A stretch of 64,000 nucleotides of DNA from Polyangia bacterium (GTDB taxonomy: Bacteria; Myxococcota_A; Polyangia; Nannocystales; Nannocystaceae). Position numbers and translations under genes: made by a program. The notes under the pieces were generated by a model. The model did not search any database. It had not been told where the DNA came from and saw only the letters and a list, made by a program, of their open reading frames with translations. The DNA is taken from positions 147,599 through 211,598 of the forward strand of contig JAUIFF010000001.1 of NCBI GenBank assembly GCA_030429545.1, given 5' to 3'. This document shows, piece after piece, positions 13,199 through 62,910 of this stretch; positions within the stretch are counted from its first letter, which is position 1; each line of letters starts with the position of its first letter.

Positions 13199-14659
13199 AT
13201 GAACCGCACGATTGGACCGATCATTGCTGCATTTGGGTTTGCCTTGATGGGCTGTGGCGATGGAAGCGGTGACGCGACCGGGACCGACTCCGCCGGGACC
13301 ACAATTTCGACCACGACGAACACCCCAACCACCGACCCAGGGACATCGATGGGGAGTGATGGCACCTCCGACACATCGGCGGGTTCCGAAACAGCCGGCG
13401 AGACGGACGCGACCACTGCCGGTCCGACGACCGATCCGTCGACCACCGATCCGTCGACGACAGACCCGTCGACCACCGATCCGACAGACCCGTCGACGAC
13501 AGATCCGTCGACGACAGATCCGTCGACGACAGACCCGTCGACCACCGAGGAGCCAACCACCGACGGTTCGACAACTGGGATGGAGTGTGGCGACCCGGAC
13601 TTCACGCCCGACCCGGACAAGACTTTTTTGTGGGCCGCCAACAGCTCGCAGGGCACCATCTCGAAGATCCGGACCAGCGATGTCACCGAGGTGGGTCGCT
13701 ATTACGTGCGTCCCGACAACGCCGGAAGCCCTTCGCGTACTTCCGTAAGTCTCACAGGACATGTCGCAGTTGCCAGCCGCAACGGCGGGGTCACCAAGAT
13801 TTGGGGCGACGAAAGCCTCTGTGCAGATACAAATGGTACCCCGGGGATCCAAACCTCGACCAACAACCAGCCGCTGCCGTGGGGCGAAGAAGAGTGCATC
13901 GCTTGGCACACGCCGTTCACCTACGCCAGCCAACGGCCGGTTGCCTGGGGCCCCGGTGTTCTCAACGAAGTCACCTGTGAGTACGAGGGGGAGGAGCTGT
14001 GGACGTCGGGCAACAACAACAACGGCGGCCTCGACATCATGATCCTCGACGGCGATGACGGCAGCGTCAAAGAGATGATTACCGTGCCTTCGGGCGGACC
14101 GAACCTCAATGCCGACCTCTACGGTATCTACGGGGCGGCGGTTGATCCCGAGGGCAACTTCTGGGGGTCGCAGTTGGGTACCAGCGGCAAGTTGCTCAAG
14201 GTCAACCGCGAGGACATGAGCTACGAAATCTACGACACGCCCAATGGCCCGCACTGGTACGGCATGACAGTCGACTCAGACGGCTACGTGTTTTTGTGTA
14301 GCAACACGGTCGGTCGGTTTGACCCCGTCAACCTGATCTGGGACCAGGCCCAGGTTGGTGGCTGGACGGGGTGCATGTCCGATGGTCAACCCGATGGTCT
14401 GTTGTGGATGAGCAACGGCAACGGGGTTGTCGGGGTCAATCGCCAAAGCCTCCAGGTCGAGAAGATGTGGCCGGCAGCCGGGTCCTATGGGATCAGCGTC
14501 GACTTTGAGGGCTATGTGTGGGCGGTGGCCAACGGCTCCAACGTCAGCAAAATCGATCCGGACACCGGCGAGTACACGACCTACTCCGGCCTTGTTGGTG
14601 CGTATACATATTCCGACATGATCGGATTTGGACTCGCCCAGGTGATTGTCCCGATGTAA
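13199..14659 (+). CDS. Secreted lipoprotein with a Thr/Asp/Pro/Ser tandem-repeat linker and a beta-rich C-terminal domain
   Basis: Start refined to MNRTIGPIIAAFGFALMGCGDG (lipobox). (TTDPS)n repeat region at ~13430-13560 encoded by 15-bp tandem DNA repeats. C-terminal domain rich in Gly/Trp/Asn with no recognised family. Confidence 0.6.
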   Translation: MNRTIGPIIAAFGFALMGCGDGSGDATGTDSAGTTISTTTNTPTTDPGTSMGSDGTSDTSAGSETAGETDATTAGPTTDPSTTDPSTTDPSTTDPTDPSTTDPSTTDPSTTDPSTTEEPTTDGSTTGMECGDPDFTPDPDKTFLWAANSSQGTISKIRTSDVTEVGRYYVRPDNAGSPSRTSVSLTGHVAVASRNGGVTKIWGDESLCADTNGTPGIQTSTNNQPLPWGEEECIAWHTPFTYASQRPVAWGPGVLNEVTCEYEGEELWTSGNNNNGGLDIMILDGDDGSVKEMITVPSGGPNLNADLYGIYGAAVDPEGNFWGSQLGTSGKLLKVNREDMSYEIYDTPNGPHWYGMTVDSDGYVFLCSNTVGRFDPVNLIWDQAQVGGWTGCMSDGQPDGLLWMSNGNGVVGVNRQSLQVEKMWPAAGSYGISVDFEGYVWAVANGSNVSKIDPDTGEYTTYSGLVGAYTYSDMIGFGLAQVIVPM

Positions 14660-14803: not shown

Positions 14804-15481
14804 ATGGCAACCACAACAAACAACAAGCGACTGGCATTGGTCCAGGCCGTCTCGGGCCTGGCATTTGCGGTTTTCTCAACGCTGCACCTCACCAACACGA
14901 TGGTCTCGGCCCTCGGTCCGGGGGCGTACAACGGGTTTCAGCGGGTCATCCGGCCGTTTTACCAACATCCGGTGGTGGAGATATTGCTGGTCGCGGTGCC
15001 GCTTGTGGTGCATGTCGCCTGCGCAGTTATCTCCGTCAAACGTCGCCCGCGGGCACGTAAGCCGCCCAACCTGCGCCTACGGCTACATCGCTACAGCGGG
15101 TACTTTCTCGCGCTCGTCGTGTTTGGCCACACCGCGGCAACCCGCGGCATCATGTTGGCGTTTGGCGTGCCACCCGAGTTCGAGGGGCTCTCGTTTTCGA
15201 TGGCTTGGATGCCCCAGATGTTCTACCCGTACTATGCGATGTTGGCCCTGTGTGGCCTCTACCATACGGTTTACGGGACAACACAGTCCCTACGGCTGCT
15301 CGGTGTGCGGGTGCCCGCCGCCATGAGCCGTGGCCCCAGGTTTTGGCTCCCACTGGCGATCCTCGGTGGATGCCTGGTCGTGGGTGTGTTGAGTTTTGGC
15401 GGATGGCTGTATGCCATCGAAGACCCCATGCAAAACGACTATGCCCGCGTGTACTTGGAGGAGCTCGGGATGGGCGAGTAG
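14804..15481 (+). CDS. Integral membrane protein with His-containing TM helices (cytochrome-b-like?)
   Basis: ATG at 14804 preceded by GGAGAGG RBS. About 5 predicted TM helices with conserved-looking His residues (HLTN, VVHVAC, FGHTAATRG); reminiscent of heme-binding b-type membrane subunits but unverified. Confidence 0.45.
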   Translation: MATTTNNKRLALVQAVSGLAFAVFSTLHLTNTMVSALGPGAYNGFQRVIRPFYQHPVVEILLVAVPLVVHVACAVISVKRRPRARKPPNLRLRLHRYSGYFLALVVFGHTAATRGIMLAFGVPPEFEGLSFSMAWMPQMFYPYYAMLALCGLYHTVYGTTQSLRLLGVRVPAAMSRGPRFWLPLAILGGCLVVGVLSFGGWLYAIEDPMQNDYARVYLEELGMGE

Positions 15482-15640
15482 GGGGCTGCAAAGCAGCGAA
15501 TGAGCCGACAACCCGAGCCATAGCCAAACCGCGATGCGTGTGTTGATACAAGTTGTTGTCACGTCATCGGTCGGCTGACGTGGCGAGCAACCGGCGAGCG
15601 CTCCTTGTCGGGTCGACGCCATCCGGCGAAACTACAGCCC

Positions 15641-16426
15641 ATGCCTGCGCCGACCTGGTTTTCGAGCAATCCCGACCGCGCCTGGGGTGAGCGCTTTTTC
15701 CTTATCTACTCGCCCATCTGGATCGTGGCCGTGGCGGCGATCATGCTCAGCGGTTGGGTCCTCAAGTTGCAAGATCTCGGCTTACTTGTGTTTGCATCGA
15801 TCGTGGCGGCGCCGCTGGTTGGCTACCCGTTGGTGGCCCGGCGCAACAGCGGGGTCGTGTGGTTTCAAAGCTACTGGTTTCGCTTCAATCTGTGGATCGC
15901 AATCTATGTGTTTGCCGGCTCGTACATCGGTAGCCACTATTTTTTTGATGTCCTGGGGATGCGTTACGCGTTTGCGTGCACGTGGACGCTCGAGGCTGCG
16001 TTGGTGGGGCAGGGCAGTGGCGAGGTCCCCATCTTTTTATATGTACTTACACAGGCCTACTTCGTTACCTACCACACCATACTCGTGCTGGTGATGCGTC
16101 GACTCGAGCGGGCGACCGGCGGTAGCCGGGTGGCATTTTGGGTTGGCCTGCTGTTTGTCGCCTATGCGGTGGCCTACGCCGAGACCCTGTTTATGGCCCA
16201 TCCGAGCCTTGCCGACGTGTTTTGGTACGAGGAGCGCGGCGAGATGCTGCGCTACGGTTCGATCTTTTATGCGACCTACTTCCTCGTTAGCGTGCCGTTT
16301 TTGATGCGGCTTGGCGAGGGCGAGCCGGGCACCTGGCCCGTCCGTCGGGTGGTGTGTGAGGCCCTCGCTGCCAGCATGCTGATGTTTTACGCCCTCGACT
16401 TTTGGGCGCTACTCGGACTGTTTTGA
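15641..16426 (+). CDS. Polytopic integral membrane protein, function unknown
   Basis: About 7 hydrophobic helices, rich in Trp/Tyr/Phe (YWFRFNLWIAIYVFAGSYIGSHYFFD). Start uncertain (15605 or 15641). Confidence 0.45.
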   Translation: MPAPTWFSSNPDRAWGERFFLIYSPIWIVAVAAIMLSGWVLKLQDLGLLVFASIVAAPLVGYPLVARRNSGVVWFQSYWFRFNLWIAIYVFAGSYIGSHYFFDVLGMRYAFACTWTLEAALVGQGSGEVPIFLYVLTQAYFVTYHTILVLVMRRLERATGGSRVAFWVGLLFVAYAVAYAETLFMAHPSLADVFWYEERGEMLRYGSIFYATYFLVSVPFLMRLGEGEPGTWPVRRVVCEALAASMLMFYALDFWALLGLF

Positions 16427-17027: not shown

Positions 17028-18410
17028 CTAAACATAGCGAAAAGTTGATGAGAAATGGCGGATCCCTGGTGCCTCTACATCAAAGCACAGTCCGCGGCGT
17101 TGCGACGAGCCTTTTTCTTCGTACACCGTCCGAACAACGTCTGCGACGTACTCTAGGTGCTCAAAGGTATAGGCCCGCCGGGGAATGGTGATCCGGCAAA
17201 GGTCCATTGCCGGGCGAATGTTCTCCCCGGTGTCGGGGTCGCGACCTATCAGACACGAACCGACTTCGACGCACCGGATGCCGCCTTCTTTATAAAGCTC
17301 GACACACAGTAGCTGGGCCGGGAACTGGTCCTGGGGGACGTTGGGGAAAAACCGGCGGGCGTCGATGAACACGGCGTGGCCGCCAATCGGATGGACGATG
17401 GGTACGCCAAAGGAGTCGAGTAACTCACCTAGGCGCCGAACCTGTCCGATGCGATAGGTCAGGTAGTCGAGGTCAACGACCTCTTTGAGGCCCTGGGCAA
17501 GTGCCTCCATCGCGCTGCCCGACATGCCGCCGTAGGTGTAAAAACCCTCAAACAAAATGGTCGGGGTTTTGACCCGCTCGTACAGCTCTTCGGATTCACG
17601 GATGCCAATAAATCCGCCGATCGGAACCAGGGCGTCCTTTTTCGAAGACATTGTACATGCATCGGCATGCTTGAACATCTCGCGGACGATGTAGGGGATC
17701 GGCGTGTCGGCGAACTCCTCTTCGCGGGTTTTGATGAAGTAGGCGTTCTCGGCAAAGCGGGCGGCGTCGTAGACAACCGGCAACCCGTATTTGTTGGCCA
17801 GTGCCCGGACGTCGCGGAGGTTTTGCATCGAAACCGGCTGGCCGCCCCCGGAGTTGCAGGTGATGGTCACGAGGATGTAGGCGACGTGGCGCGCCCCGTA
17901 CTCGCGGATGACCGCCTCGGTTTTTTCGATGTCGATGTTGCCCTTGAAGGGGTGGTCCCCCTCGGAGCGACGACCGGCGTCGATCGTGCAGTCGATCGCG
18001 CGACCCCCCGAAAACTCGATGTGGGCCTTGGTGGTGTCGAAGTGCGAGTTGCCCGGGACGATCTGGTTTTTCTTGATCATCACGAAGTTCAACACCTGCT
18101 CCGCGGCACGCCCCTGGTGGACAGGAATCGTGTAGCGAAAGCCCATGGTCTCCATGACCTGCCGCTCCATCGCCCGAAAGGAGCGCGAGCCGGCGTAACT
18201 CTCGTCGCCGTTCATCGAGCGTGCCAGCTGCATGGCCGAGATGGCCCCGGTGCCGCTGTCGGTCAAGAGGTCGATGTAGACATCTTCGGCGTCGAGCTGA
18301 AACACGTTGAGCCCAGCCGCCGAAATCTTCTTGTTTCGCTGCTCGAGCGACGGGAGCTTGAGCGGCTCGATGACCTTGGCCCGAAACGGGATGATGGTCC
18401 TCTTCGACAT
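17028..18410 (-). CDS. tnaA: Beta-eliminating lyase family: tryptophanase or tyrosine phenol-lyase (PLP-dependent)
   Basis: 460 aa, full-length and colinear with the TnaA/TPL family (typical ~456-471 aa). Tryptophanase and TPL cannot be told apart by eye. Gene symbol is tentative. Confidence 0.7.
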   Translation of the reverse strand: MSKRTIIPFRAKVIEPLKLPSLEQRNKKISAAGLNVFQLDAEDVYIDLLTDSGTGAISAMQLARSMNGDESYAGSRSFRAMERQVMETMGFRYTIPVHQGRAAEQVLNFVMIKKNQIVPGNSHFDTTKAHIEFSGGRAIDCTIDAGRRSEGDHPFKGNIDIEKTEAVIREYGARHVAYILVTITCNSGGGQPVSMQNLRDVRALANKYGLPVVYDAARFAENAYFIKTREEEFADTPIPYIVREMFKHADACTMSSKKDALVPIGGFIGIRESEELYERVKTPTILFEGFYTYGGMSGSAMEALAQGLKEVVDLDYLTYRIGQVRRLGELLDSFGVPIVHPIGGHAVFIDARRFFPNVPQDQFPAQLLCVELYKEGGIRCVEVGSCLIGRDPDTGENIRPAMDLCRITIPRRAYTFEHLEYVADVVRTVYEEKGSSQRRGLCFDVEAPGIRHFSSTFRYV

Positions 18411-33297: not shown

Positions 33298-36279
33298 GTG
33301 ATCCGCGTGATGCCAAACGATGTGATGCCCATGGCAACAAGCTCGAAGAAGTCTTCCGCGAAAAAGGCCACCAAGAAAGCGGCCAAGAAGACCGCCAAAA
33401 AGAAGGCGGCCAAAAAGACGGCTAAGAAGAAGACCGCAAAGAAAAAAACGGCCAAGAAGAAGACCGCAGCCAAGAAAAAGACTGCGAAGAAAAAGACGGC
33501 CAAGAAAAAGACCGCAGCCAAGAAAAAGACGGCGAAGAAAAAAGCGGCCAAGAAGACCGCCAAGAAAAAGGCGGCCAAGAAGAAAACCGCGAAAAAGAGC
33601 TCGAAGTCAGCGGTCGGCAAACAACTGGTCATCGTCGAGAGCCCCGCCAAGGCGAAAACAATCAACAAGTACCTCGGCAACGACTTTGTTGTGCAGGCCT
33701 CCGTCGGGCATATCCGCGACCTCCCAGCCCGTGCGCCAAAGGGCAGCAAGATGCCGGTGCCCGGGGTCGACCTCGAAAACAACTTTGAGCCGACCTACGA
33801 GGTTTTGCCGAGCAAGACCAAGACCGTCAACGAGCTCAAGAAGCTGGCAAAAAACGCCGACGAAGTGTGGTTTGCCACTGACCTTGACCGCGAAGGGGAG
33901 GCGATTGCCTGGCACCTGTCGCAGGAACTTGGGATCGATCCGTCGGCGGCCAAGCGCGTCGTGTTTAACGCGATCACCGAAGAGGCTGTCACGCGGGCTT
34001 TTGCCAAACCCCGGGCGATCGACGAGAACAAAGTCAATGCCCAGCAGGCCCGGCGAATCCTCGACCGCCTCGTCGGCTACCTAGCCTCGCCGCTGCTGTG
34101 GAAGAAAGTGGCCCGCGGACTGTCGGCCGGTCGCGTGCAGTCGGTCGCCGTGCGTTTGATTGTCGAGCGCGAACGCGAGATCGACGTGTTTGTCCCGTCC
34201 GAGCGCTGGCAGGTTACGGCCCGGATCTGCAGCGACCCGAGCCAGAGCACCGCCCTCGCCAAGGCCTGGTCGGAGTTCATCGCCACTGTCGACGAAAAGG
34301 GAAGGGCGCCGACCAACAAACGCCGGAACGCGTGGATGGCCAAACAACATGCCCTCCGCGCTGAGCTGCACGAGTTTGAAGGAAAGCGGTTTTCGCTTGG
34401 GTGCCCGGCCGATGACCCCAAGGACCTGTCGGCCGAGATCAAGCGCATCGCCGAGGCCGTTGGGCTCGACGACGTCGCGGTGGTGACAACCGAGGATGAG
34501 TCGGGCAAGGGGCCGGCCAAGTACAAGCGCGTGGTGGTTGGCAAGCCGCTGGCGACCGCCCGCTACCAGGTCGATGCGATCGAAACCCGCAAGACCTCAT
34601 CGCGCCCGTCCGCACCGTTCATCACCTCGAGCCTGCAGATCGCAGCTTCGACGCGCCTGGGCTTTGCCGCCCAACGGACCATGCGAACGGCCCAAAGCCT
34701 GTACGAAGGCGTGGCGATTCCGGGGGCGGGCCAGGTCGGTCTCATTACCTACATGCGTACCGACTCGACCAACCTGTCCGGAGAGGCACTCGGCCAGATC
34801 CGCGAGTTTATCACCAAGACCTACGGCGACGAGTTTTTATCGGCCAAGCCCAACGTGTTTAGTTCGTCCAACAAGGACGCACAGGAGGCCCACGAGGCGA
34901 TTCGCCCGACCGATGTTTCCCGCACCCCCGAGTCGGTTCGCTCGGCCCTCACCGAAGAACAGTTCAAGCTCTACGACCTGATCTGGCGGCGGACCGTGGC
35001 TTCGCAGATGCCCCCGGCGCAATGGGACGCGACCAGCGTGTTTTTTGTCCGCAGCGACAAACCGACCAAGGTTCGCCTCAAGTGCACCGGCCGCTCCCTC
35101 GCCTTCGCCGGCTTTTACAAGGTTGCCGGTGTGCCGATCGACTCCGACGAGCAGACCCTGCCGGCCTTCCAAAAAGGCGACACGCTCGGTCTGTTTACCG
35201 TCGAGCCCGAGCAAAAGTTTTCAAACCCGCCGCCGCGCTACACCGAGGCTTCGCTGGTCAAAACCCTCGAAGGCGAGGGGATCGGCCGGCCGTCGACCTA
35301 CGCCTCGATCATCCAGGTCATCCAAGATCGCAACTACGTCGAGCAACTCGATCGCCGGTTTTATGCGACCGACTTGGGAGAGGTCGTCACCGACAAACTC
35401 GTCGAGGCGTTCAACGAGCTCATGAACGTTGGCTACACCCGCGAGATGGAGCAACAGCTCGACGGGATCGAGGCCGAGGGCAACGACTGGAAGCGGATGC
35501 TCGAGAAGTTCTACAAAGTCTTCTCGCGCGACCTAGAGACCGCCCACGAAAACCTGACCCACGCCAAGGCCGAAACCCAGCAAGCGCCCTACGCCTGTCC
35601 CAAGTGCGGGTCGCCGACCTGCTACCGGTTTGGCAAAAACGGTCGTTTTCTGTCGTGCACCGCCTATCCCAAGTGCGACTACGCGGCCCCGATCAACCGC
35701 GAGGGCACGCCGTTGCTACCGGAGCACGTCGACATCGTGTGCCCCGACGACGGCTCTGAAATGGAGTTGCGAAGCAGCCGCTTTGGCCCGTTTATCGCCT
35801 CGGTCAACTACCCAAAGACGGTCTTCGTGATCAACCTCGACCGCAAGGGCAACATCAAATACCCGGCGATTCCCCCGTATGTCACCGAGCTAGAGTGTGA
35901 AAAGTGCGGGGCCCCGCTCAACCTTCGCAACGGCAAACGCGGCCCCTGGCTCGGTTGCTCCAAGTTTCCGAAGTGTCGCGGGCGCAAGAGCTGGAACTCG
36001 CTCGACGACGAAACCAAGACCGAACTTGTCAACGCCTTGACCGAGCACGAAGCCAAAAATCCCCGCCCCGAGTTGCGGCGGCGGGACGGCTCGATCATCC
36101 CCGAGGGCACACCCGCCCAGGACCTCGCGCTACCAGGCCGCGAGGTTGAGCTCCAGATCCATCCAGACTGGGATGCCGACAAGGCCGAGCAAGAAAACGC
36201 GAAGGTCCCAGCCAAAGCCATCGCCCAGGCACGGGCCCAAGCGCAGTCGCAGCAACAGCAGCAACACGCCTCGACCTAG
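33298..36279 (+). CDS. topA: DNA topoisomerase I with N-terminal Lys-rich (AKKT)n extension
   Basis: TOPRIM start (KQLVIVESPAKAKTINKYLG), catalytic domain and C-terminal zinc ribbons (CPKCGSPTCYRF..., CEKCGAPL...). Residues ~14-105 are AKKTAKKKTAKKK repeats. Start at 33298 or M12 at 33331. Confidence 0.9.
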   Translation: MIRVMPNDVMPMATSSKKSSAKKATKKAAKKTAKKKAAKKTAKKKTAKKKTAKKKTAAKKKTAKKKTAKKKTAAKKKTAKKKAAKKTAKKKAAKKKTAKKSSKSAVGKQLVIVESPAKAKTINKYLGNDFVVQASVGHIRDLPARAPKGSKMPVPGVDLENNFEPTYEVLPSKTKTVNELKKLAKNADEVWFATDLDREGEAIAWHLSQELGIDPSAAKRVVFNAITEEAVTRAFAKPRAIDENKVNAQQARRILDRLVGYLASPLLWKKVARGLSAGRVQSVAVRLIVEREREIDVFVPSERWQVTARICSDPSQSTALAKAWSEFIATVDEKGRAPTNKRRNAWMAKQHALRAELHEFEGKRFSLGCPADDPKDLSAEIKRIAEAVGLDDVAVVTTEDESGKGPAKYKRVVVGKPLATARYQVDAIETRKTSSRPSAPFITSSLQIAASTRLGFAAQRTMRTAQSLYEGVAIPGAGQVGLITYMRTDSTNLSGEALGQIREFITKTYGDEFLSAKPNVFSSSNKDAQEAHEAIRPTDVSRTPESVRSALTEEQFKLYDLIWRRTVASQMPPAQWDATSVFFVRSDKPTKVRLKCTGRSLAFAGFYKVAGVPIDSDEQTLPAFQKGDTLGLFTVEPEQKFSNPPPRYTEASLVKTLEGEGIGRPSTYASIIQVIQDRNYVEQLDRRFYATDLGEVVTDKLVEAFNELMNVGYTREMEQQLDGIEAEGNDWKRMLEKFYKVFSRDLETAHENLTHAKAETQQAPYACPKCGSPTCYRFGKNGRFLSCTAYPKCDYAAPINREGTPLLPEHVDIVCPDDGSEMELRSSRFGPFIASVNYPKTVFVINLDRKGNIKYPAIPPYVTELECEKCGAPLNLRNGKRGPWLGCSKFPKCRGRKSWNSLDDETKTELVNALTEHEAKNPRPELRRRDGSIIPEGTPAQDLALPGREVELQIHPDWDADKAEQENAKVPAKAIAQARAQAQSQQQQQHAST

Positions 36280-36616
36280 CTATCAGTCCGAGAGCGTGTC
36301 CGAGGCAAATGGGCGAGCATCTTGCCCGGGCTCGCGGGAAACCGCGACTATGCCCAGGCACGGGCGCAAGCGCAGTCGCAGAAACAGCAGCAACACGCCT
36401 CGACCTAGCTATCAGGCCGAGAGCGTGTCCGAGGCAAATGGGCGAGCATCTTGCCCGGGCTCGCGGCCACCGCGACTTTGCCCAGGCACGGGCGTAAGCG
36501 CAGTCGCAGCAACAGCAGCAACACGCCTCGACCTAGCTATCAGCCCGACAGCGTGTCCGAGGCAAATGGGCGAGCATCTTGCCCGGGCTCGTGGCTGCCC
36601 GGGCTCGCGGTCACCG
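36223..36616. repeat. Tandem ~128-bp repeat, ~3 copies, beginning inside the last ~55 bp of topA
   Basis: Unit ctatcag(t/g)ccgagagcgtgtccgaggcaaatgggcgagcatcttgcccgggctcgcgg...gcccaggcacgggcg(c/t)aagcgcagtcgcag(a/c)aacagcagcaacacgcctcgacctag. Copies start at ~36280 and ~36409, with a truncated copy at ~36531. Each copy regenerates the topA C-terminal codons and stop. Confidence 0.85.
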
Positions 36617-36621
36617 CGACT

Positions 36622-36698
36622 TTGCTGTGTGTATAAACATTGAAATGTCCGCGCGAACGTTGCTATGTGTATAAACATAGAAATGTCCGCGCGCGTGG
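36622..36698. repeat. Tandem ~39-bp repeat, 2 copies
   Basis: gct(g/a)tgtgtataaacat(t/a)gaaatgtccgcgcg repeated twice. Locally AT-rich. Confidence 0.7.
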
Positions 36699-38289: not shown

Positions 38290-38830
38290 GCACAGCCTTG
38301 GCAGGTCAGCGCGCCACGTTCACGTGCACGCCGCACTTCTTCGCGTTGAGCATCGCCCGGGCGCGGTTGGGTCGAAAGTCCTTGCCGCGCTCAGCTCGAT
38401 GTACTCGCAGGGGGCGTGTCGGTTCGCAGTGGACGCGCCTGGCAAGAACAACTCAGGTCGCGCCGAAGCTCGGCGGGGCCACACCCTCCCACGGTAAGTT
38501 CATGGTGGCGACGCTCGTGAGACGGTGCGCGCCACGTTCACGTGCACGCCGTACTTCTTCGCGTTGAGCATCGCCCGAACGCGGTTGGGTCGAAAGTCCT
38601 TGCCGCGCTCAGCTCGATGTACTCGCAGGGGGCGTGTCGGTTCGCAGTGGACGCGCCTGGCAAGAACAACTCAGGTCGCGCCGAAGCTCGGCGGGGCCAC
38701 ACCCTCCCACGGCAAGTTCATGGTGGCGACGCTCGTGAGACGGTGTTTGGCAAGCATGCCTGGGACGCGCGCCACGTTCACGTGCACGCCGTACTTCTTC
38801 GCGTTGAGCATCGCCCGAACCGGGCCGCGG
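38290..38830. repeat. Tandem ~234-bp repeat (2 full copies plus the native copy) derived from and fused to the 3' end of the cupin gene
   Basis: The 50-bp block cgcgccacgttcacgtgcacgccg(c/t)acttcttcgcgttgagcatcgcccg occurs at ~38293, ~38527 and ~38769. The ~180 bp between blocks is near-identical (copies at 38343-38524 and 38577-38758). The cupin ORF runs through copy 3 into copy 2. Confidence 0.85.
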
Positions 38831-39201
38831 TTGGTCAGCTCGACGAGCTGCTGAAAATCCTCACCGGCGTTGAGCTCGATGTACTCACAGGGCGTGTCGG
38901 TGGCGTTCCAAAAGCAGTGCTCCACGCCCGCCGGTTTGCGCACGAAGCTACCAGCGGGCACGGTGAAGCGAAGTCCTCCCTCGCCGCCAACCTCGAACTC
39001 GAGTTCGCCGGAAATGACATAAACGGCCTGGTCTTCGGATGCATGGGTGTGGGGTGCGAGGAGCTGGTGGGGAACAAGCGTTACCTTCATCGCCGAGAAG
39101 ACACCGCCGGTGTGCTCGGTGCCGACAGCGATATAAACGTGATTACCGACCTTTTTGCCCTGGCCAGGGAGAACGAGGAGATCTTCAACAGTGTGGTTCA
39201 T
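38671..39201 (-). CDS. Cupin-domain protein whose C-terminus is encoded within the tandem repeat
   Basis: 176 aa. Cupin motifs (HTHASEDQAVYVISGELEFEV and PAGVEHCFWN). The last ~55 codons lie inside the 234-bp repeat array, so the C-terminus may be an artefact or variant of repeat expansion. Confidence 0.6.
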   Translation of the reverse strand: MNHTVEDLLVLPGQGKKVGNHVYIAVGTEHTGGVFSAMKVTLVPHQLLAPHTHASEDQAVYVISGELEFEVGGEGGLRFTVPAGSFVRKPAGVEHCFWNATDTPCEYIELNAGEDFQQLVELTNRGPVRAMLNAKKYGVHVNVARVPGMLAKHRLTSVATMNLPWEGVAPPSFGAT

Positions 39202-39290
39202 GGCGTGGCTTCTTCCGTTTGTTTGGAGCAGGTCGCGTACAATCGACCAGCTTTTTCAGGCTAGAGCTTCCCCCTTCGGCTGGCCGCGCG

Positions 39291-40358
39291 ATGGACGACA
39301 AAGACCGAGCTGATGACGCCAACCTGCATGTCCCGTCCATGCTGGCCAATTTGATGACCGCCGCTGCTGCATACGCGGTGCAGCGGGGTGTCTCCCTGGA
39401 GCAGATCGCCGAGGCAGCCGGGCTTGCGCCCAAGACTCTGATCGCTGCCCCCGAGCGGGTGCCCGAGGATGCGGTCTCGCGGATCCTCAACCTGCTCCAG
39501 CAGCGTTTCCCCGATGAGGCGGTGGCCGTTGAGATGGCGGCCGCGGCTCCCTTGCACTTTCTCGGTCCGCTCGCGCCCCTCGTGCGACTCGCACCCAATC
39601 TGCGTGCGGGCCTCGAGATGTTCGTGCACTTCCGCAGCCTGCTGTCCACACGCGCCGTGTTGGAGCTCGTCGAGGCACCGCCCGGACCCATGCTCCGGCT
39701 CGAACACCCGAACGACTTGGAGTTCGGTGGGGTGAGCACCGAGATGGGAATCGCGATGGGCGTGCGGGTGGTCGCTGAGGGCTTTTGCCTCCCCAACGCC
39801 CTGCGCGAAGTATGGTTCGAGCACCTGCCGACGGCGCCGCTCGGCAGGTACACAGAGGCCTTCTGTGTCCCAGTGCGTTTCAGGGCCCCTTGCAATGCAT
39901 TGCTGTTTCACGCCGAGCGGCTCGACGACCCCGTCGACACGGTCGCCGGTGCACAGCTCCGTGTGCTGCGGGCCCACCTAGAGCTTGTACGACAGCAGCT
40001 CGAGCAACAGGGAGAACCGGCAGAGCTCCGGCGGATCCGCGATGCGGCCGCTCAAAACGCAGCCCGCCGGGAGTACGGCGCGGCAGCACTCGCCCGTCGT
40101 CTGGGCATGAGCCTGCGGACGCTGCAGCGGCGTGTGGACGCGCTGGGCACCTCGGTCCGCTCGCTCATCGACGAAGTACGAGCGGCCACCGCCCGCCAGC
40201 TTATCTCCGACCCCGATCTGACTCTCCTCGAGGTCGCGGACGCGCTGGGATACACCACCGAAAGCGCCTTTCGCAGAGCTTTTCGCCGATGGACGGGACA
40301 CAGCCCTGCACACTACCGGCGCTCGCTCGCCGCCAGGCACGAGTCTTCGTCGGGTTAG
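39291..40358 (+). CDS. AraC-family transcriptional regulator
   Basis: Start refined to ATG 39291 (MDDKDRADD...). C-terminal AraC HTH (LLEVADALGYTTESAFRRAFRRWTGHSPAHYRR). Divergent from the cupin gene. Confidence 0.8.
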   Translation: MDDKDRADDANLHVPSMLANLMTAAAAYAVQRGVSLEQIAEAAGLAPKTLIAAPERVPEDAVSRILNLLQQRFPDEAVAVEMAAAAPLHFLGPLAPLVRLAPNLRAGLEMFVHFRSLLSTRAVLELVEAPPGPMLRLEHPNDLEFGGVSTEMGIAMGVRVVAEGFCLPNALREVWFEHLPTAPLGRYTEAFCVPVRFRAPCNALLFHAERLDDPVDTVAGAQLRVLRAHLELVRQQLEQQGEPAELRRIRDAAAQNAARREYGAAALARRLGMSLRTLQRRVDALGTSVRSLIDEVRAATARQLISDPDLTLLEVADALGYTTESAFRRAFRRWTGHSPAHYRRSLAARHESSSG

Positions 40359-40526
40359 CTGTACCTCCACGGCGTTGGTTGGCTCGTCCACTACCGAATC
40401 GTCCTCGAAGTTAGCGGTATCTTCAAGGTGTTGGCGGACTCGTCCAGACCGCGGTCGAACGTTCGGCCCACCGGTCACGACTGTCGGGCCCTTCCAGGCT
40501 GCCGAGTGTCGCCAAACCGCGGCCCT

Positions 40527-41230
40527 GCGCAAGTGCGTTGTCAGTCAGCTGCCGGTCGCAGGAGTTGGTGCGACGAATAGAGTGCGGCCTTGACCGCCGG
40601 CAGGCCGCCGCCAACCTTGGCCAGCGGGCCTCGGCCGATGTGCTGAGCAGAACAGAACCGAAGTCGTTCCGCTATCGTCGCAGATTATCCTGAGGCCTCC
40701 TATGTGCGGGAACGCGGTGAGCCGCGAGTCTCTGTAAGTGTGCCCAGTCAGCTGCCGGCCTCAGGAGTTGGTGCGGCCTTGACCGCCGGCCCCCGACGAC
40801 CGTGGCCAGCGGGTCTTAGCCGATGTGCTGATCAGAACAGAACCGAAGTCGTTCCGCTATCCTCGCAGATTATCCTGAGACCTCCTTTGTGTGGGAACGC
40901 GGTTAGCCGCGAGTCTCTGTAAGTGCTCAGTCAGCTGGCCGCAGGAGTTGGGCGGCCTTGGCCGCCGGCGGGCCTCCGACAACCGTGGCCAGCGGGTCTT
41001 GGCCGATGTGCTGAGCAGAACAGAACCGAAGTCGTTCCGCTATCGTCGCAGATTATCCTGCCGGCCGAGAATCAAACAGGAACAGAAGTCGTTGCGTTAT
41101 CGTCGCAGATTATCCTGAGGCCTCCTTTGTGCGGGAACGAGACACTTCCTCGGCAAGCCGCAAGTCTGCGCAGGTGCGTTGTCAGTCAGCTGCCGGTCGC
41201 AGGAGTTGGTGCCAGGAATAGAGCGCTCGT
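40527..41230. repeat. Tandem ~181-bp noncoding repeat array (~3.5 copies) with terminal ~60-bp direct repeats
   Basis: Units begin cagtcagctg(c)cgg...caggagttggtgcg at 40541, 40746, 40927 and 41186 (partial). Conserved core gccgatgtgctga(g/t)cagaacagaaccgaagtcgttccgctatc(g/c)tcgcagattatcctgag(g/a)cctcct(a/t)tgtg(c/t)gggaacg, with an extra diverged core at ~41075. Flanks gcgcaagtgcgttgtcagtcagctgccggtcgcaggagttggtgc occur at both ends. Confidence 0.85.
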
Positions 41231-41244
41231 TAACTGAGCACGAA

Positions 41245-41886
41245 CTAGTCCACACGAGCCCATCCCCGCGGCCAGCGTTTTTTTCGTCGGCGCAGGGGCG
41301 AGGCTACGCGTAGATCCAGATGTATCATCAAGTACTCGTCGTCGTCGTCGTTGGTGGTTGCGAACCAGGCTGGAAACGATGCCTGGGGCTCGGGTTGTCC
41401 AAACTCTAGAGGGTGGGCTTTCAACCCCCGGTACATCTTTCCGGTAGCTCCTGGCGGCAGCGTTTCGGGCAGGCCTTGGAGGACAAACAATTTGCGGGAT
41501 GGATGTTCGGCAAACCTGAACGCACACACCAGTAGTCGGCACTTCCTGTCAAAGCTGACCCAAATGTACCGTCGCCCATCGATGTGCTTGGTCGCCAAAA
41601 TTTTTCCTCGCACCCGGCGGCCGTAGGTCGAGAGCAGCGAGCGTTCGGTGTGGGTTAGGTGTAGCCGGCCATCGACTCGTGCTTCGCTGTCGAGGGGGGC
41701 CCCGTGTTCGAGACGAATGCGATGACTCAACAGAACCCGAATACGCTTTTGCCCCCCATCGACGGCCTGAACCTGTTGAAGATAGGCCCGGGTCAAGTCG
41801 ACTCGGTGTCCACAAGCACTGGCGAGCAACGCAGCAGCGATGGCGGCTAGCAGGCCAAAATAGTGATTTATTAGTTGAGTGTGCAT
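41245..41886 (-). CDS. Hypothetical secreted protein
   Basis: Start refined to MHTQLINHYFGLLAAIAAALLASACG (signal peptide). 213 aa with an acidic DDDDE near the C-terminus. No domain recognised. Confidence 0.5.
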   Translation of the reverse strand: MHTQLINHYFGLLAAIAAALLASACGHRVDLTRAYLQQVQAVDGGQKRIRVLLSHRIRLEHGAPLDSEARVDGRLHLTHTERSLLSTYGRRVRGKILATKHIDGRRYIWVSFDRKCRLLVCAFRFAEHPSRKLFVLQGLPETLPPGATGKMYRGLKAHPLEFGQPEPQASFPAWFATTNDDDDEYLMIHLDLRVASPLRRRKKRWPRGWARVD

Positions 41887-41958
41887 GATTCCTAGGCGAG
41901 GCTTTGTGGATACAATAAGGTCGCGGTTGGCTCGGTGGCGACGATGGTGCGTGCCGTA

Positions 41959-42125
41959 CAGGGGCACTTGGGGCGGGCGTGACAGATTAGGAGGTTTGGC
42001 GGCATTCCACTGGTTAGTGGGCGTGACAGTGTGGGAGGACTGGTTTTGGTCACATTTTGCAGCTTCTGGTGGGCGTGACAGCGCGTGGGAGGACCGGTTT
42101 TGGCAGCACTCCACGGGTTTAATGT
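41959..42125. repeat. Three tandem ~52-bp repeats each carrying GGGCGTGACAG
   Basis: gggcgtgacag-(3-5 nt)-ggagg-(2-3 nt)-ggttttgg at ~41966, 42011 and 42063. Lies between the tagH stop (42150) and the start of the 41886(-) gene, i.e. in that gene's promoter region. Confidence 0.75.
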
Positions 42126-42149
42126 GCGTTGTCTACGGGTGTACTAATG

Positions 42150-45100
42150 TCAAAACTCGCCAGGCTGCCAGTCGAGCTCCGCAGACGAGTTGGCTTCGGG
42201 GTTGACTGTTTGGACCAGTAGCGATGCGGTTGCGCCCACCAGTGTGCTGCCCGTGAGTCTGAGCGGTGACCTTCGTCGCCGCGTCTGTGTCATTTTTGTT
42301 CGTTCCGAAGTGTGCACAGTGAGTTGTTCTTCGAGGACTGGCTCGCCAGTGTCAAAAACGACAGCTCGTTCGAGCTCGAGGACCCATTCGGAGTGTGGAG
42401 GTTGGTAGTGCACCGTTCGCGTAAAGGTTGCCGGGCGGACACAGCCCTCCTGCGTAGGTGTGGCACCAACGACTAGCTCAGGGGTGTAAAGCTTCTCGCC
42501 GCTTCGCACGAGCAGGGTAAATTCATCACGGCATCTCGTTGTTGCAAGTGCATCGATGCATCGACGTGTCGAGAGCACAAAGTAGTCGGCAGACTGACCA
42601 GGAAAGAACTCGATTGCGGTCACTGCGGCAGCCGCCCGCATCGAACCTAACGCGCGTACTCGAAGCTCGCGCGACGAAACCTCAACCAGCGCGACTGGGC
42701 CGAGCCCCTCACCGTGGATTGTTGCCAACTGGAGCCATACCAATTCAAGCCCGGGAGCTGCGTGTGAGCGGGTAACCCGACTGGACTTTTCGATACCAAC
42801 TTCGGGGTACTCAAACTCGATGTTGGGGTCGCAGGTGTCGGTGGGTGCAGGCCACACAAACAGCTCTCCAGTACAGTCCAACAGTTTTCCGGGAGCAGAC
42901 TGAAACTGACCGTGGGTTTCCGGGTAGCTGCGCGCAAGCAGTTCGTACCAGTGTGTATCTACAATATCGTCCGAGCTCTCGGGGAGCGTATGGGCAAACG
43001 TGAGTTGGCAAAGAGGGGCGTTCGTCGGCTGGCTCGGCGGCGGGGAGCAAGCTGCAAGGACCATCAACAGGAACAACAAGATCGCCGCGGGAAGGTTCTT
43101 ACCAGTAGGAGCGGGTGTGTTTGCGAACTGTGTCGGTGATTGTTGTTCGCTATCTGGCACCCTCCGCGTGCCGAAGTCGGCAGGCTCTACAGGTGTTTTT
43201 GGAGATTGTGTCGGGGGTGCATCTTGGACACTCGGTCTCCCAAATGTGACGTGCTTTACGGGTATGTTTAGGGGTTGTGTCGGGGGCTCGTCTCGAACAC
43301 TCGGTCTCCCGAATATGACAGGCTTTTGCGGGAACTGTGTCGGAGGTTCATCTCGAAGGTTCGGTCTAGCGAATGTGACAGGTGTTACTAGGGGTTGTGT
43401 CGAAGGTTCACCTCGAACACTCCGTCGAGAGAATGTGACGGGCTTGACAGGTGTCTGCGGGGACTGTGTCGGAAGTTCATCCCGAACTCTCGGTCTCCCG
43501 AAGGGCTGGACAGGCTCGACCAGGGTTTGTGTGACGTCTCCTGTCGGGAGACTTACTTTGGAGCGTTGTGGTGGGGCACCGGGGGGCTGAACGGGCTCGA
43601 CCAGAGTTTGTGTGGCGTCTCCTGTCGGGGCACTTACTTTGGAGCGTTGTGGTGGAGCACCGGGGGACTGGACAGGCTCGACCAGGGTTTGTGTGACGTC
43701 TCCTGTCGGGCCATCTACTTTGGAGCGTTGTGGTGGGGCACCGGGGGACTGAACGGGCTCGACCAGAGTTTGTGTGGCGTCTCCTGTCGGGCCACTTACT
43801 TTGGAGCGTTGTACTGGGCCGCCGGGGGGCGGGTGCCACACCTGTGGGTGCTCGCCATCTGCAACCTCCCCAAGTGTTTGAGTGACATCGCCTGCGGCCG
43901 TCGTGTCGTGGGGGCGATCCGGCAGCAGGCAGGCAGGTCGCTTGTGGGTTACCGAGTCTTCGCCTGCGGTGCGTGGGCGGTGAGCGAGGTCGCCAACCGA
44001 AACCGGCAAAAACCGACGGGAGTCAGTCGTGTGGTACAAACGCCCGCAGATCGAAGTATATGCATTTGCAAAGTTTTTGCCAAGGAGTGCACGGTTGAGC
44101 TCCTCGTCCTGCAGTAGTTGGGCAAGCCGACGCTTAAACAGTGCCCAGCGGGCGTGCACGCGCAATGGCCAGAGTTTCCATGGAATCGTCAGTCGCCCAA
44201 GTCGAATCGCGGTTTTTCTTAAACGCCTATCGAGGGCCTTGGGTGACAAACTGTTGAGCACTGCCCGAACGCTTCCCCGCAACCCTCCCAGCAACCCTAG
44301 CTGATGGGCCATCAGGGTTTTGTAGGCTTGATTCAGTGCTTGCAGTCGCGGAGCATTGGTACCCTTAGGATCGTATAAATAGCGTAGGACATCGTTGGGG
44401 TCCTTGGGGTGGGCAAGCGGGTTATTTGCCTGAAATGGCACAACATGGGCATGCCCGTGGGCGAAGTCGATAGCTCCATCGTGCAACCCGACCAGTGCCC
44501 GAGCGTGGGCACGGGCAACTGTCACAACCCGGGTTACAAACGCCGCAATTTCATCGGAGGTTTCGAGGTTTGTCTGATTCCCGGTGAGCTCGCGGGCAAG
44601 CCAGCGTAGCGCACGTCCCGAAACGACATCTCGGTGGTGCGTAAATCCGGTTGCTTCGGGGCGTGAGCGACTTGGACCGCTTGGACCACTTGGACCGCTT
44701 GGACCACTTGGGCCACGACACGGGCCCATCGAGCGAAAGGCCGGTTCTTTCGCCAGGACCGGAAGCGACTGGCGAAGTTGGGTAAAAACCTCGTGTTGCT
44801 GCGCAGGCGTCAAGTCTGCAGTTTGCTGCCGAAGTTTGGCCAAAAGTTGTTCGCAAGCTCCAAGATACTCATTGTAAAGCGGGGTGAGAGTCTCCAGGAT
44901 GCTGGCGTTCGTTCGCGATGGACGACGCCATACCGTTGTCGGTTGGGCTTCGCAGTGCACGTCGGATGGGCTGGGTTTGTCCGTCGACCACAGCATCGTT
45001 GGCTCGCTGGGCTTCGGCGCACCCATTGCCGAGCGGAGCTCCCGTTGCAGGCGTTGCGCATGGCAGTTTTCATTGGCCGTAAGCAGCTCGCCCGGCCCCA

Positions 45101-45401
45101 GCTTGCGACTGATTGCCAGGCGTACGGGACCAAGCGTGAGCTGTGAGCTCGTTGTCAACTGGTAGGGGTTGTTTGCGGAGAGTGGGCGACCATCGAGGCG
45201 GCTGCCATTGGCTGAGTCGAGGTCGGTATACTCAACCCAGTTGCGCGAAAAATTGACGACTCCATGTAGTTGAGAAACATAGGGGGAGTTGACAACAATA
45301 TCGTTGCAAAGGTTGCGGCCGATCGAGACCGGGGAGTGCGTAAATCGCAACCGCCGCTCTAGTACTCCGTCAGGTGAATAAATATGAATATACAGATGCA
45401 T
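42150..45401 (-). CDS. tagH: T6SS-associated FHA-domain protein (TagH/Fha-like) with repeat region, TM segment and large C-terminal domain
   Basis: 1083 aa. N-terminal FHA domain (RFTHSPVSIGRNLCNDIVVNSPYVSQLHGVV...DLDSANGSRLDGRPL). Four 28-aa tandem repeats (QRSKVSGPTGDATQTLVEPVQSPGAPP). Pro-rich segment, TM helix LPAAILLFLLMVLAAC, then a ~330-aa C-terminal domain. Last gene of the hcp-tssEFG operon. Confidence 0.75.
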   Translation of the reverse strand: MHLYIHIYSPDGVLERRLRFTHSPVSIGRNLCNDIVVNSPYVSQLHGVVNFSRNWVEYTDLDSANGSRLDGRPLSANNPYQLTTSSQLTLGPVRLAISRKLGPGELLTANENCHAQRLQRELRSAMGAPKPSEPTMLWSTDKPSPSDVHCEAQPTTVWRRPSRTNASILETLTPLYNEYLGACEQLLAKLRQQTADLTPAQQHEVFTQLRQSLPVLAKEPAFRSMGPCRGPSGPSGPSGPSGPSRSRPEATGFTHHRDVVSGRALRWLARELTGNQTNLETSDEIAAFVTRVVTVARAHARALVGLHDGAIDFAHGHAHVVPFQANNPLAHPKDPNDVLRYLYDPKGTNAPRLQALNQAYKTLMAHQLGLLGGLRGSVRAVLNSLSPKALDRRLRKTAIRLGRLTIPWKLWPLRVHARWALFKRRLAQLLQDEELNRALLGKNFANAYTSICGRLYHTTDSRRFLPVSVGDLAHRPRTAGEDSVTHKRPACLLPDRPHDTTAAGDVTQTLGEVADGEHPQVWHPPPGGPVQRSKVSGPTGDATQTLVEPVQSPGAPPQRSKVDGPTGDVTQTLVEPVQSPGAPPQRSKVSAPTGDATQTLVEPVQPPGAPPQRSKVSLPTGDVTQTLVEPVQPFGRPRVRDELPTQSPQTPVKPVTFSRRSVRGEPSTQPLVTPVTFARPNLRDEPPTQFPQKPVIFGRPSVRDEPPTQPLNIPVKHVTFGRPSVQDAPPTQSPKTPVEPADFGTRRVPDSEQQSPTQFANTPAPTGKNLPAAILLFLLMVLAACSPPPSQPTNAPLCQLTFAHTLPESSDDIVDTHWYELLARSYPETHGQFQSAPGKLLDCTGELFVWPAPTDTCDPNIEFEYPEVGIEKSSRVTRSHAAPGLELVWLQLATIHGEGLGPVALVEVSSRELRVRALGSMRAAAAVTAIEFFPGQSADYFVLSTRRCIDALATTRCRDEFTLLVRSGEKLYTPELVVGATPTQEGCVRPATFTRTVHYQPPHSEWVLELERAVVFDTGEPVLEEQLTVHTSERTKMTQTRRRRSPLRLTGSTLVGATASLLVQTVNPEANSSAELDWQPGEF
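43490..43840. repeat. In-frame 84-bp tandem repeats (4 copies) inside tagH
   Basis: DNA repeats gctcgaccagggtttgtgtgacgtctcctgtcggg...ctttggagcgttgtggtgg encode the 28-aa repeat. Likely length-variable. Confidence 0.8.
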
Positions 45402-61691: not shown

Positions 61692-62633
61692 ATGAAAGTT
61701 GTTGATTGTTTGCAACTCCACGAAGAACTTGTGGGTTTTGTCGAGCGCGGCTCCGACTGGATGCTCCTCCTCGATACTCCCGGGCCGGTGTACCGACCGG
61801 TATACGGACTACTGCGTGCAGTAAGTGAGCGCAACCCGGCGGACCTGCTCATGTCGTTTCCGGTGCCATTTTCGTCGCCCGAGCAGTTTGCCGAGGGGTG
61901 CCTCGCGGTCGCGCTCCGCTACCTACAGCAGCTCGTTGGGTTTACGGCGGAGGTCCCTGAACACACCGGTTGCCCGGTCACTGTCCTCAACCGGCTGGCC
62001 CACGACGTACAAGCTCAAATGCCACAATCGCCAGATCGTCGGCTGACGTTTGCGCTGATTCCCCCAGAAATTGCTGATACAACGAAGTGGGAAAATCTCG
62101 CTGCCCAACTGACGCCCCAGTTGTGTGCGGGGGCACCAGCCTTTGGCTGGATTGTGCGAGTAACCGAAGGCGCGCTTGCGAGTACCGCTGCCCCCGGCGT
62201 ACTGTCGCTTGGGGTAACACTTCCAACCCGCGTGGCGAAGACGCCAAAAACGGCGGAGGAGCGAGTCATGTACGGACTTTTGGCGGCCAAGCAGGCGTTG
62301 GCCCAAAAAGACTACAAACGGGCTTTGGCCTGGTGCGGGGGGCTCGAGCGGCATCCACTGGTCCAGCAGCGTGCGGCGCTGCTGAGTCAGGTTTTGATGT
62401 GCGAAGGAGATGCCCTGCGGCACACAGACTGGAAAGCCGCGCACCGTCGCTACCAGTTGGCGTTCGCAGCCGCGAGTAGCTGTCCACAAGGAGGGTATTT
62501 GTCAGGGGTGGCGATGTCTTCGCTGGCTGTTAGCGGGAAGATCGTCAATGACCCACTGACCTCTATGTATGTACAAAATGCCAAGGCGTTTCAGCAGTGG
62601 TCGCGGGGAGGTGACGAAAGCAACGGAGGCTAG
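61692..62633 (+). CDS. Hypothetical protein immediately downstream of vgrG (candidate T6SS adaptor/effector-associated protein)
   Basis: 313 aa. Good codon bias. Helical/TPR-like C-terminal region (KDYKRALAWCGGLERHPLVQQRAALLSQVLMCEG). No recognised domain. Confidence 0.5.
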   Translation: MKVVDCLQLHEELVGFVERGSDWMLLLDTPGPVYRPVYGLLRAVSERNPADLLMSFPVPFSSPEQFAEGCLAVALRYLQQLVGFTAEVPEHTGCPVTVLNRLAHDVQAQMPQSPDRRLTFALIPPEIADTTKWENLAAQLTPQLCAGAPAFGWIVRVTEGALASTAAPGVLSLGVTLPTRVAKTPKTAEERVMYGLLAAKQALAQKDYKRALAWCGGLERHPLVQQRAALLSQVLMCEGDALRHTDWKAAHRRYQLAFAAASSCPQGGYLSGVAMSSLAVSGKIVNDPLTSMYVQNAKAFQQWSRGGDESNGG

Positions 62634-62677: not shown

Positions 62678-62910
62678 TCGTAAAGGTAGAGACGCCGTTC
62701 GTACCTCAAGCCGGACCAGGGACAAGACGGCGGGAGCATAAGGTTTCGGCGAGAGAACAAGTGGGCAGGAGATTCGACTGCCTAGATCTTCTCGGTTATC
62801 GTAAAGGTAGAGACGCCGTTCGTACTTCAACTGGACCAGGGACAAGACGGCGGGAGCATAAGGTTTGGCGAGAGAGCAAGTGTCGATTGCCTAGACCCTC
62901 TCGGTTATTC
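62678..62910. repeat. Two tandem ~117-bp noncoding direct repeats
   Basis: cgtaaaggtagagacgccgttcgtac(c/t)tcaa...ggaccagggacaagacggcgggagcataaggttt(c)ggcgagaga(a/g)caagtg...tgcctaga...tctcggttat occurs twice, at ~62685 and ~62802. Confidence 0.8.

Follow-up and report, generated by a model that had tools for sequence, protein, structure and literature searches.

The 64-kb window examined here (the whole stretch of DNA analyzed, 64,000 nt from contig JAUIFF010000001.1 of a Polyangia bacterium, to which positions refer unless a contig is named) contains a genuine tandem array at 40509-41226. About four copies of a ~185-bp unit fill the spacer between two convergent genes, one encoding an AraC-family regulator and the other a protein with a lipoprotein-type signal, beside a type VI secretion system (T6SS) cluster. 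The array is probably a lineage-specific, noncoding, minisatellite-like tandem duplication of unconstrained spacer DNA that serves no dedicated function. An earlier note on this DNA had described a noncoding tandem array between the AraC gene and a secreted hypothetical gene next to the T6SS region, which was borne out by Tandem Repeats Finder, self-BLAST, and gene calls. Among the three identities that the note offered (small-RNA gene array, minisatellite, or remnant of a mobile insertion), the evidence favors the minisatellite. The flanking genes are as follows; since they converge on the array, neither needs a promoter there.

39291-40358, plus strand: AraC-family regulator with Arabinose_bd and HTH_18 domains, left of the array.
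41245-41886, minus strand: 213-amino acid protein with a lipoprotein-type signal (LLASAC), right of the array.

Tandem Repeats Finder reported 40582-41060 with a period of 185, 2.6 copies, 89% matches, and a score of 755. Start-to-start spacings of 185, 183, and 57 nt were obtained in the repeat search, placing the period at 183-185 bp rather than the 181 bp first proposed. Neighboring units match each other at E = 5e-106 in a self-BLAST of the window, and the 33-nt center of the core occurs four times at ≤2 mismatches versus 0 times in 100 shuffles. Divergence among the copies is 7-15%. Unit alignments resolve three segments, A (~60 nt; ...CGCGGTNAGCCGCGAGTCTCTGTAAGTG..CAGTCAGCTGCCGG.CGCAGGAGTTGGTGC), B (~69 nt; GGCCTTGACCGCCGGC, a variable stretch, and then GTGGCCAGCGGGTCTTGGCCGATGTGCTGAGCAGAACA), and the 60-nt core C (GAACCGAAGTCGTTCCGCTATCGTCGCAGATTATCCTGAGGCCTCCTTTGTGCGGGAACG). 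They follow one another in the order A0-B1-C1-A1-B2-C2-A2-B3-C3 (cut after 38 nt)-B4′ (a 19-nt remnant)-C4-A3, for a tally of four A, three full B, and three full plus one truncated C; B1C1 and B3C3 are 93.6% identical by self-BLAST. None of the following parts is assigned a strand.

40509-40571, plus piece x (GACGAATAGAGTGC) at 40572-40585: A0, the left edge copy; repeat family D3, 87% identical to 41150-41226, and unit alignment.
40586-40654 and 40655-40714: B1 and the C1 core; repeat families D1, D2, and D6, and alignments.
40715-40899: complete interior unit composed of A1 (40715-40774), B2 (40775-40839), and C2 (40840-40899); alignment.
40900-41060: A2 (40900-40953), B3 (40954-41022), and C3 (41023-41060, truncated after 38 nt); alignment.
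41061-41149: 19-nt B remnant (41061-41079), full core C4 (41080-41139), and a 10-nt junction; D2 spacing of 57 nt, and alignments.
41150-41226: A3, the right edge copy, with x′ (CAGGAATAGAGCGC); repeat family D3; ends 18 nt short of the lipoprotein stop codon.

The stretch 41061-41149 is thus a fourth unit with an internal deletion reaching from mid-C3 to late B4. The strongly conserved core of the earlier note is present in four occurrences but is only mildly better conserved than A and B: a manual count over the unit alignment gave ~6.7% substitutions in C, ~5% plus three indels in A, and ~11% plus an indel in B. An inverted repeat does exist within the core (GTTCCGC...GCGGGAAC), consisting of 5 bp, a bulge, and 2 bp and lying under the 12-nt reporting limit of the repeat search, but it is broken without compensation in C4 (GTTGCGT). 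The ~60-bp direct repeat said to bracket the array is likewise there (40509-40585 versus 41150-41226; 77 nt, 87% identity, 641 bp apart, enclosing the array alone), yet it is not a separate terminal repeat. Both edge copies are homologous to the interior A segments, with A0 and A3 aligning with A1 and A2, and are simply the first and last copies of segment A. They carry a 14-nt piece that is missing from the interior copies and that in A0 reads ACGAATAGAGTGCG. Excising it from between the two GTGCG repeats of A0 yields the exact A1 junction, as read from the sequence.

Inter-unit indels of 1, 2, 3, 4, and 14 nt and spacings of 185/183/57 mean that no reading frame is kept across the units. All eight open reading frames (ORFs) in or overlapping the array (nine counting one that starts in A3) have codon-usage scores of -0.11 to -0.38, compared with +0.05 to +0.52 for 18 real genes used as the reference, which agrees with the earlier remark that no ORF there has sensible codon usage. 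The longest of them (104 amino acids in one frame) had no real homologue in a HMMER search of 1.84 billion representative proteins, the single match being an irrelevant coiled-coil repeat protein. A protein-coding role was rejected on the negative scores, the loss of frame, and the lack of a real homologue of this 104-residue ORF.

The unit is confined to this locus within everything searched. Exact-pattern scans with the core through 596 Gb of species-representative genomes, JGI metagenomes, and viral contigs returned chance matches of 17-26 nt only, as checked by BLAST, and distant BLASTN searches of plasmids and phages gave no match. No second copy was found elsewhere in the 64-kb window, also with a unit profile, and the same profile found nothing at the loci of relatives. 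Comparison of the unit with the lipoprotein-hydrolase spacer and the array of the syntenic contig L017 (introduced below) and with the downstream regions of L009, L011, L015, and L016 gave only a chance 11-mer, GCTCAGTCAGC; no unit-like DNA lies downstream of two 50%-identical lipoprotein homologues. An origin of the unit in the 3′ end of the AraC or the lipoprotein gene was also rejected, as the similarity is not above chance.

Nor did any sign of a mobile element emerge. The tRNA scan of the window was empty, no integrase or transposase was found among 10 ORFs around the array scanned with Pfam (including AraC and the first T6SS genes), and the repeat search listed no inverted repeats at the termini; the two that it did list are trivial, 12 nt long, and away from the ends. 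Ends of the type found in repetitive extragenic palindromic (REP) elements or miniature inverted-repeat transposable elements (MITEs) were rejected, as the array ends are direct repeats that belong to the unit. Attachment-site (att) repeats of a genomic island were rejected given these tRNA and integrase results, repeats that enclose the array only, and a T6SS that is syntenic in L017; a tRNA/att origin of segment A was rejected on the absence of a tRNA from the window. The composite element or mobile remnant envisaged earlier therefore has no counterpart in these results. As to a genome-wide REP/MITE family, no dispersed copy turned up in the window or in the collections searched.

The most informative comparison is with contig L017 (GCA_964621785.1), which carries the one other TssF homologue in the protein collection (43% identity). 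L017 is syntenic with the window, sharing T6SS genes, the FHA gene, an orthologue of the lipoprotein, a PAF-AH/DLH hydrolase, and TopA, with amino acid identities of 87.6% for TopA, 79.6% for the hydrolase, 84.7% for TssC, and 58.8% for the lipoprotein. Divergence of the T6SS cluster is very uneven (TssC 85%, TssB 65%, TssM 48%, TssF 43%, TssK 39%, and TssG 33% identity). At the syntenic site, L017 lacks the array, and the lipoprotein orthologue (15243-15905, plus strand, 59% identical) is followed by the hydrolase gene ~100-150 nt after its stop codon. The public annotation at this position of L017 (15354-15818) calls a 154-amino acid ORF on the other strand, but the true gene is evidently that of the lipoprotein orthologue.

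The array was previously placed at the left border of the T6SS region. The position is correct, but the TopA-hydrolase-lipoprotein-FHA-T6SS order is also found in L017, in the same neighborhood without the array. A T6SS cluster newly acquired as an island with its edge at the array was accordingly rejected, despite a lower third-position GC in the T6SS genes (0.55-0.65 over 41245-64000) than in the housekeeping genes (0.69-0.80 over 1-40358).

Similar arrays unrelated to this one occur nearby. Four were found in the window in addition to the 185-bp array.

36223-36595: 128 bp x 2.9 array, 95% identity, at the topA 3′ end (Tandem Repeats Finder).
36615-36693: 38 bp x 2.1 repeat directly after the 128-bp array.
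38309-38901: 218 bp x ~2.7 array made of copies of the 3′ part of a cupin gene, the first two copies being 98% identical.
62678-62908: ~121 bp x 1.9 noncoding repeat, 85% identity, 45 nt downstream of ORF 61692-62633 and just past the T6SS VgrG region.

Each 128-bp copy comprises the last 57 nt of topA, including the TAG stop codon, and a 3′ untranslated region with a TCGCGG-N3/4-CCGCGA hairpin, which in the last copy is scored as a terminator by the scan. The 218-bp array fills the gap between the cupin stop and the hydrolase start. In L017, the convergent TopA-hydrolase spacer (17280-17951) holds at least seven copies of a hairpin-rich 57-69-bp unit (GTGTTCGGCCGAGTTTCTCGCTCAGTCAGCGGCTGAGCTCGGCTGCGAGTC) that is unrelated to the 128-bp array in the same spacer of the window, which suggests rapid turnover of the arrays in this spacer. 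Contig L015 has a ~60 bp x 2 duplication at 1380-1470, read by eye, downstream of a 50%-identical lipoprotein homologue; the duplicated piece comprises the last ~20 nt of the lipoprotein gene, including the stop codon, and the next ~40 nt. No such arrays were seen in L009 (21 kb) or L011, a comparison biased by the fact that short-read contigs break at such arrays.

These nearby arrays are mutually unrelated in sequence and located at gene 3′ ends and in spacers. They sit only where duplication spares genes, which is the pattern expected of random tandem duplication filtered by selection, and they point to a general duplication process and not to a dedicated element. The 185-bp array resembles those of the window, L017, and L015 in size class (57-218 bp, two to seven copies) and in its spacer or gene-end site, and it shares a GC hairpin of the CGCGG-N4-CCGCG type with the topA array. 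Unlike the topA, cupin, and L015 arrays, which copy gene 3′ ends, its unit has no recognizable parental gene, and its copies are more diverged (85-93% identity) than those of the nearby arrays (95-98%).

On the reading favored here, slipped-strand mispairing or unequal recombination would have multiplied, head-to-tail, a ~200-bp piece of spacer (A-x-B-C) lying between the convergent genes. The interior copies would then have lost the 14-nt piece through a deletion between the two GTGCG microrepeats and been partly homogenized, and a second, later deletion may have fused units 3 and 4. The edge copies A0 and A3 would have retained the older form and for this reason look like bracketing repeats. 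The array would be filler at the junction of a rearranged 2.9-kb segment carrying the cupin and AraC genes (described below), and at most might add hairpins between converging transcripts.

Several observations weigh against this account. Copies that are 7-15% diverged, versus 0.8% for a co-occurring strain, make the array old, and it persists despite exact runs of 33-39 nt that invite recombinational collapse, which could hint at selection. Three core copies carry GATAAT with TTCCC(G/A) 17 nt upstream on the minus strand; the core also contains AAGGAGG/CCTCCTT, and two interior C/A junctions form perfect GC palindromes resembling the topA terminator hairpin, all of which is compatible with promoter and terminator modules. 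In addition, the search of the source genome covered the 64-kb window, and dispersed copies beyond it are possible.

The first alternative concerns how the spacer arose. Relative to L017, the window carries 2.9 kb without a counterpart at the syntenic site.

38337-41244: 2.9-kb segment comprising the 218-bp array, the cupin gene (minus strand), the AraC gene (plus strand), 150 nt of unique sequence, and the 185-bp array.

The 185-bp array is one of two that flank a two-gene segment either relocated here or lost in L017, with the 218-bp array bordering the extra DNA on the left. Homology of the cupin-AraC pair to L009 and L010 (~85% nucleotide identity) spans 38677-40330 only and ends exactly at both gene ends; in L011, where the contig lacks the cupin side, it is restricted to AraC (39124-40334). 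Homology to the AraC orthologues stops at 40330-40334, the last conserved AraC codons, and the 185-bp array is missing downstream in these contigs. The AraC protein of the window has a novel 8-amino acid tail. The pair has different neighbors in L009, the context downstream of AraC differs again in L011, and no T6SS is found there. The arrays might accordingly be a scar, having arisen during or because of a replication-based, template-switching insertion of the cupin-AraC pair, or represent the remains of mobile-element ends. We consider this unlikely. The two flanking arrays are unrelated in sequence, the transposase, integrase, tRNA, and inverted-repeat searches above were negative, and the difference from the single syntenic relative may reflect either an insertion here or a deletion in L017. 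Similar arrays also occur without evident rearrangement in the TopA-hydrolase spacer of both genomes. The idea moreover overlaps with the favored explanation, as it concerns the origin of the spacer and not the role of the array.

Somewhat less probable still is a tandem small-RNA gene array in which each unit is an independent module of the NsiR1, PrrF, or Cystobacter pxr type. In its likeliest version, transcripts would be made from the minus strand under TTCCCG-17-GATAAT, with start points near 40677, 40862, and 41102 and with the next CGCGG-N4-CCGCG hairpin as their end; an alternative version would have plus-strand transcription ending at the hairpin followed by GUCUCUGU. The candidate promoters are as follows.

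40684-40712, minus strand: weak sigma-70-like motif TTCCCG-17 nt-GATAAT in core C1, read from the sequence; motif match only.
40869-40897, minus strand: sigma-70-like motif (TTCCCA) in C2, the sole copy passing the consensus scan (9/12).
41109-41137, minus strand: sigma-70-like motif in C4, identified in the same way as that of C1.

These motifs occupy the same unit position, and C3 retains the -10 hexamer alone, leaving the full motif in three of the four cores. Perfect palindromic hairpins with 5-bp GC stems are formed at the C1/A1 junction (CGCGG-TGAG-CCGCG, 40713-40726) and the C2/A2 junction (CGCGG-TTAG-CCGCG, 40898-40911), much like the hairpin called as a terminator behind topA. The minus-strand consensus fold contains G-U pairs that are possible only on that strand. 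Because both flanking genes point inward, transcription starting inside the array would be autonomous, and tandem arrays with one promoter per copy are already known (PMC4030482; PMC5568312).

Tests of these features nevertheless gave no positive support. The whole window has no Rfam match at the gathering score, and the permissive E-value mode over the array returned one nonsense long noncoding RNA match (E = 2.4). Folding z-scores are -0.22 (plus strand) and -0.96 (minus strand) for the whole array and -1.25 to +1.40 for single units, none of them significant on either strand, and RNAalifold found zero compensatory pairs on either strand, although three to four copies give this test low power; the folding and covariation analysis that the earlier note had named as a check on the core thus came out negative. 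The terminator scan over 40200-42200 found 0 sites versus 1.5 expected by chance, and the CGCGG-N4-CCGCG hairpin has no T-run on either strand. The -35 hexamer matches at three to four of six positions, promoter-like sites occur at the chance rate (5 versus 4.1 expected), and the putative stem is broken in C4. Finally, the array is absent from the syntenic L017 and from all collections searched.

A stronger claim is a shade more doubtful again: every ~185-bp copy would be a self-contained gene for a small RNA, driven by a promoter of its own, closed by a hairpin terminator, and most probably read from the minus strand. The same low probability goes with a milder variant, in which tandem duplication of 60-220 bp at gene ends is unusually active in this lineage and the array is the oldest survivor in the window.

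Service as an array of protein-binding sites is very improbable. Here, the adjacent AraC regulator, a nucleoid-associated protein, or DnaA would bind the repeats, which would act in titration, as an insulator, or as a bidirectional termination zone. The core contains GAAC-N7-GTTC and TTATCCTGA (7/9 DnaA-box positions), both picked out by inspection, the motifs recur four times at regular spacing, and there is one palindromic hairpin per unit. However, none of the motifs attains a recognized consensus, the regulator would be expected to act at the divergent cupin-AraC promoter region and not on its own 3′ side, relatives do not conserve the array, and a spacing of 185 bp is atypical of site arrays such as iterons and sopC. 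A DnaA box was rejected as a candidate in its own right, TTATCCTGA fitting only 7/9 positions, as were a sigma-54 promoter and an IHF site, whose spacing and consensus do not fit in a by-eye reading.

Support for the assembly, also raised earlier as a point to check, comes from short-read (Logan) contigs of three independent samples, all of which carry the flanking genes. L007 (SRR24075713) terminates at window position 40571 and L008 (SRR15635847, 99.2% identical) at 40562, both inside A0, and L004 (ERR3428548) begins at 41183, inside A3. A0 and A3 have an exact 39-mer in common (40533-40571 = 41174-41212), at which a k=31 graph branches, explaining the contig ends; the breaks therefore mean that two distinct contexts exist for segment A. 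Together with the 7-15% divergence and the unit-specific indels, they show that the existence of the array is not an assembly artefact, while the window assembly is the sole source for the interior copy number. That a long-read metagenome-assembled genome spuriously expanded the array or miscounted its copies is hence scarcely credible, even though the interior is present in this one assembly only and short-read assemblies fail to cross it, as assembly error does not produce such divergence and indels and the breaks sit exactly at the shared 39-mer.

Beyond the lipoprotein gene, the minus strand encodes FHA, TssG, and TssF, after which TssK and further T6SS genes are found on the plus strand. 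The names on the closest AraC homologues are Nannocystaceae/Myxococcota. Smaller tandem repeats were also noted within or across genes. The FHA/TagH-like gene (42150-45401, minus strand) contains in-gene repeats of 60, 69, and 81/162 bp at 43181-43830, which account for a protein of 1083 amino acids versus 802 in L017; short-read contig L002 is interrupted within the gene, perhaps at the repeats. In the 5′ part of topA (33298-36279), repeats of 15-48 bp at 33356-33597 encode an N-terminal lysine/alanine-rich region of topoisomerase I that has a weak Pfam match to HC2 (histone H1-like) and is also present in the L017 orthologue. A 15/30-bp repeat (CGACGACAGATCCGT) with ~8 copies lies at 13410-13563, where ORFs of both strands overlap.

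Intergenic minisatellites, or variable-number tandem repeats (VNTRs), are familiar from bacteria, an example being the mycobacterial interspersed repetitive unit (MIRU)-VNTR loci of Mycobacterium tuberculosis, a dispersed family with a unit of roughly 40-100 bp. Shared with them are a head-to-tail, noncoding, intergenic arrangement, copies that are imperfect, incomplete units at the edges, deletions within the array, and the lack of any coding or RNA signal. The array differs in its longer unit (183-185 bp) and in being a single orphan locus and not part of a dispersed family.

The small-RNA systems offer a second point of reference. NsiR1 of heterocystous cyanobacteria is present in 12 tandem copies, each with its own promoter (PMC4030482), and Cystobacter has tandem pxr small-RNA paralogues (PMC5568312). 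The array shares with both the intergenic direct repeats of 100-200 bp and a promoter-like motif and hairpin at fixed unit positions, and with pxr a myxobacterial host. Unlike either, it lacks a clear terminator, a structural or covariation signal, and conservation across related genomes, and neither its sequence nor Rfam links it to Pxr or any other family. If the small-RNA interpretation were true, the locus would be a lineage-specific, multicopy regulatory RNA locus beside a divergent T6SS cluster in an uncultured Nannocystaceae-like myxobacterium, analogous to NsiR1 and the tandem pxr paralogues and unrelated to them.

Taken as one more bacterial minisatellite, the array matters little, although it might serve as a marker for typing strains and cautions that such arrays fragment short-read assemblies of this lineage. 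Modestly more interesting is its setting: 64 kb contain five large-period noncoding arrays that are unrelated to each other, two of them copying gene 3′ ends with terminators; arrays lie on both flanks of a relocated two-gene module; and the same spacer holds a different array in a relative. Should this density hold across the genome, it would suggest that large myxobacterial genomes either produce tandem duplications unusually often or tolerate them unusually well, and that new spacer DNA, and possibly new small RNAs, can arise in this way.

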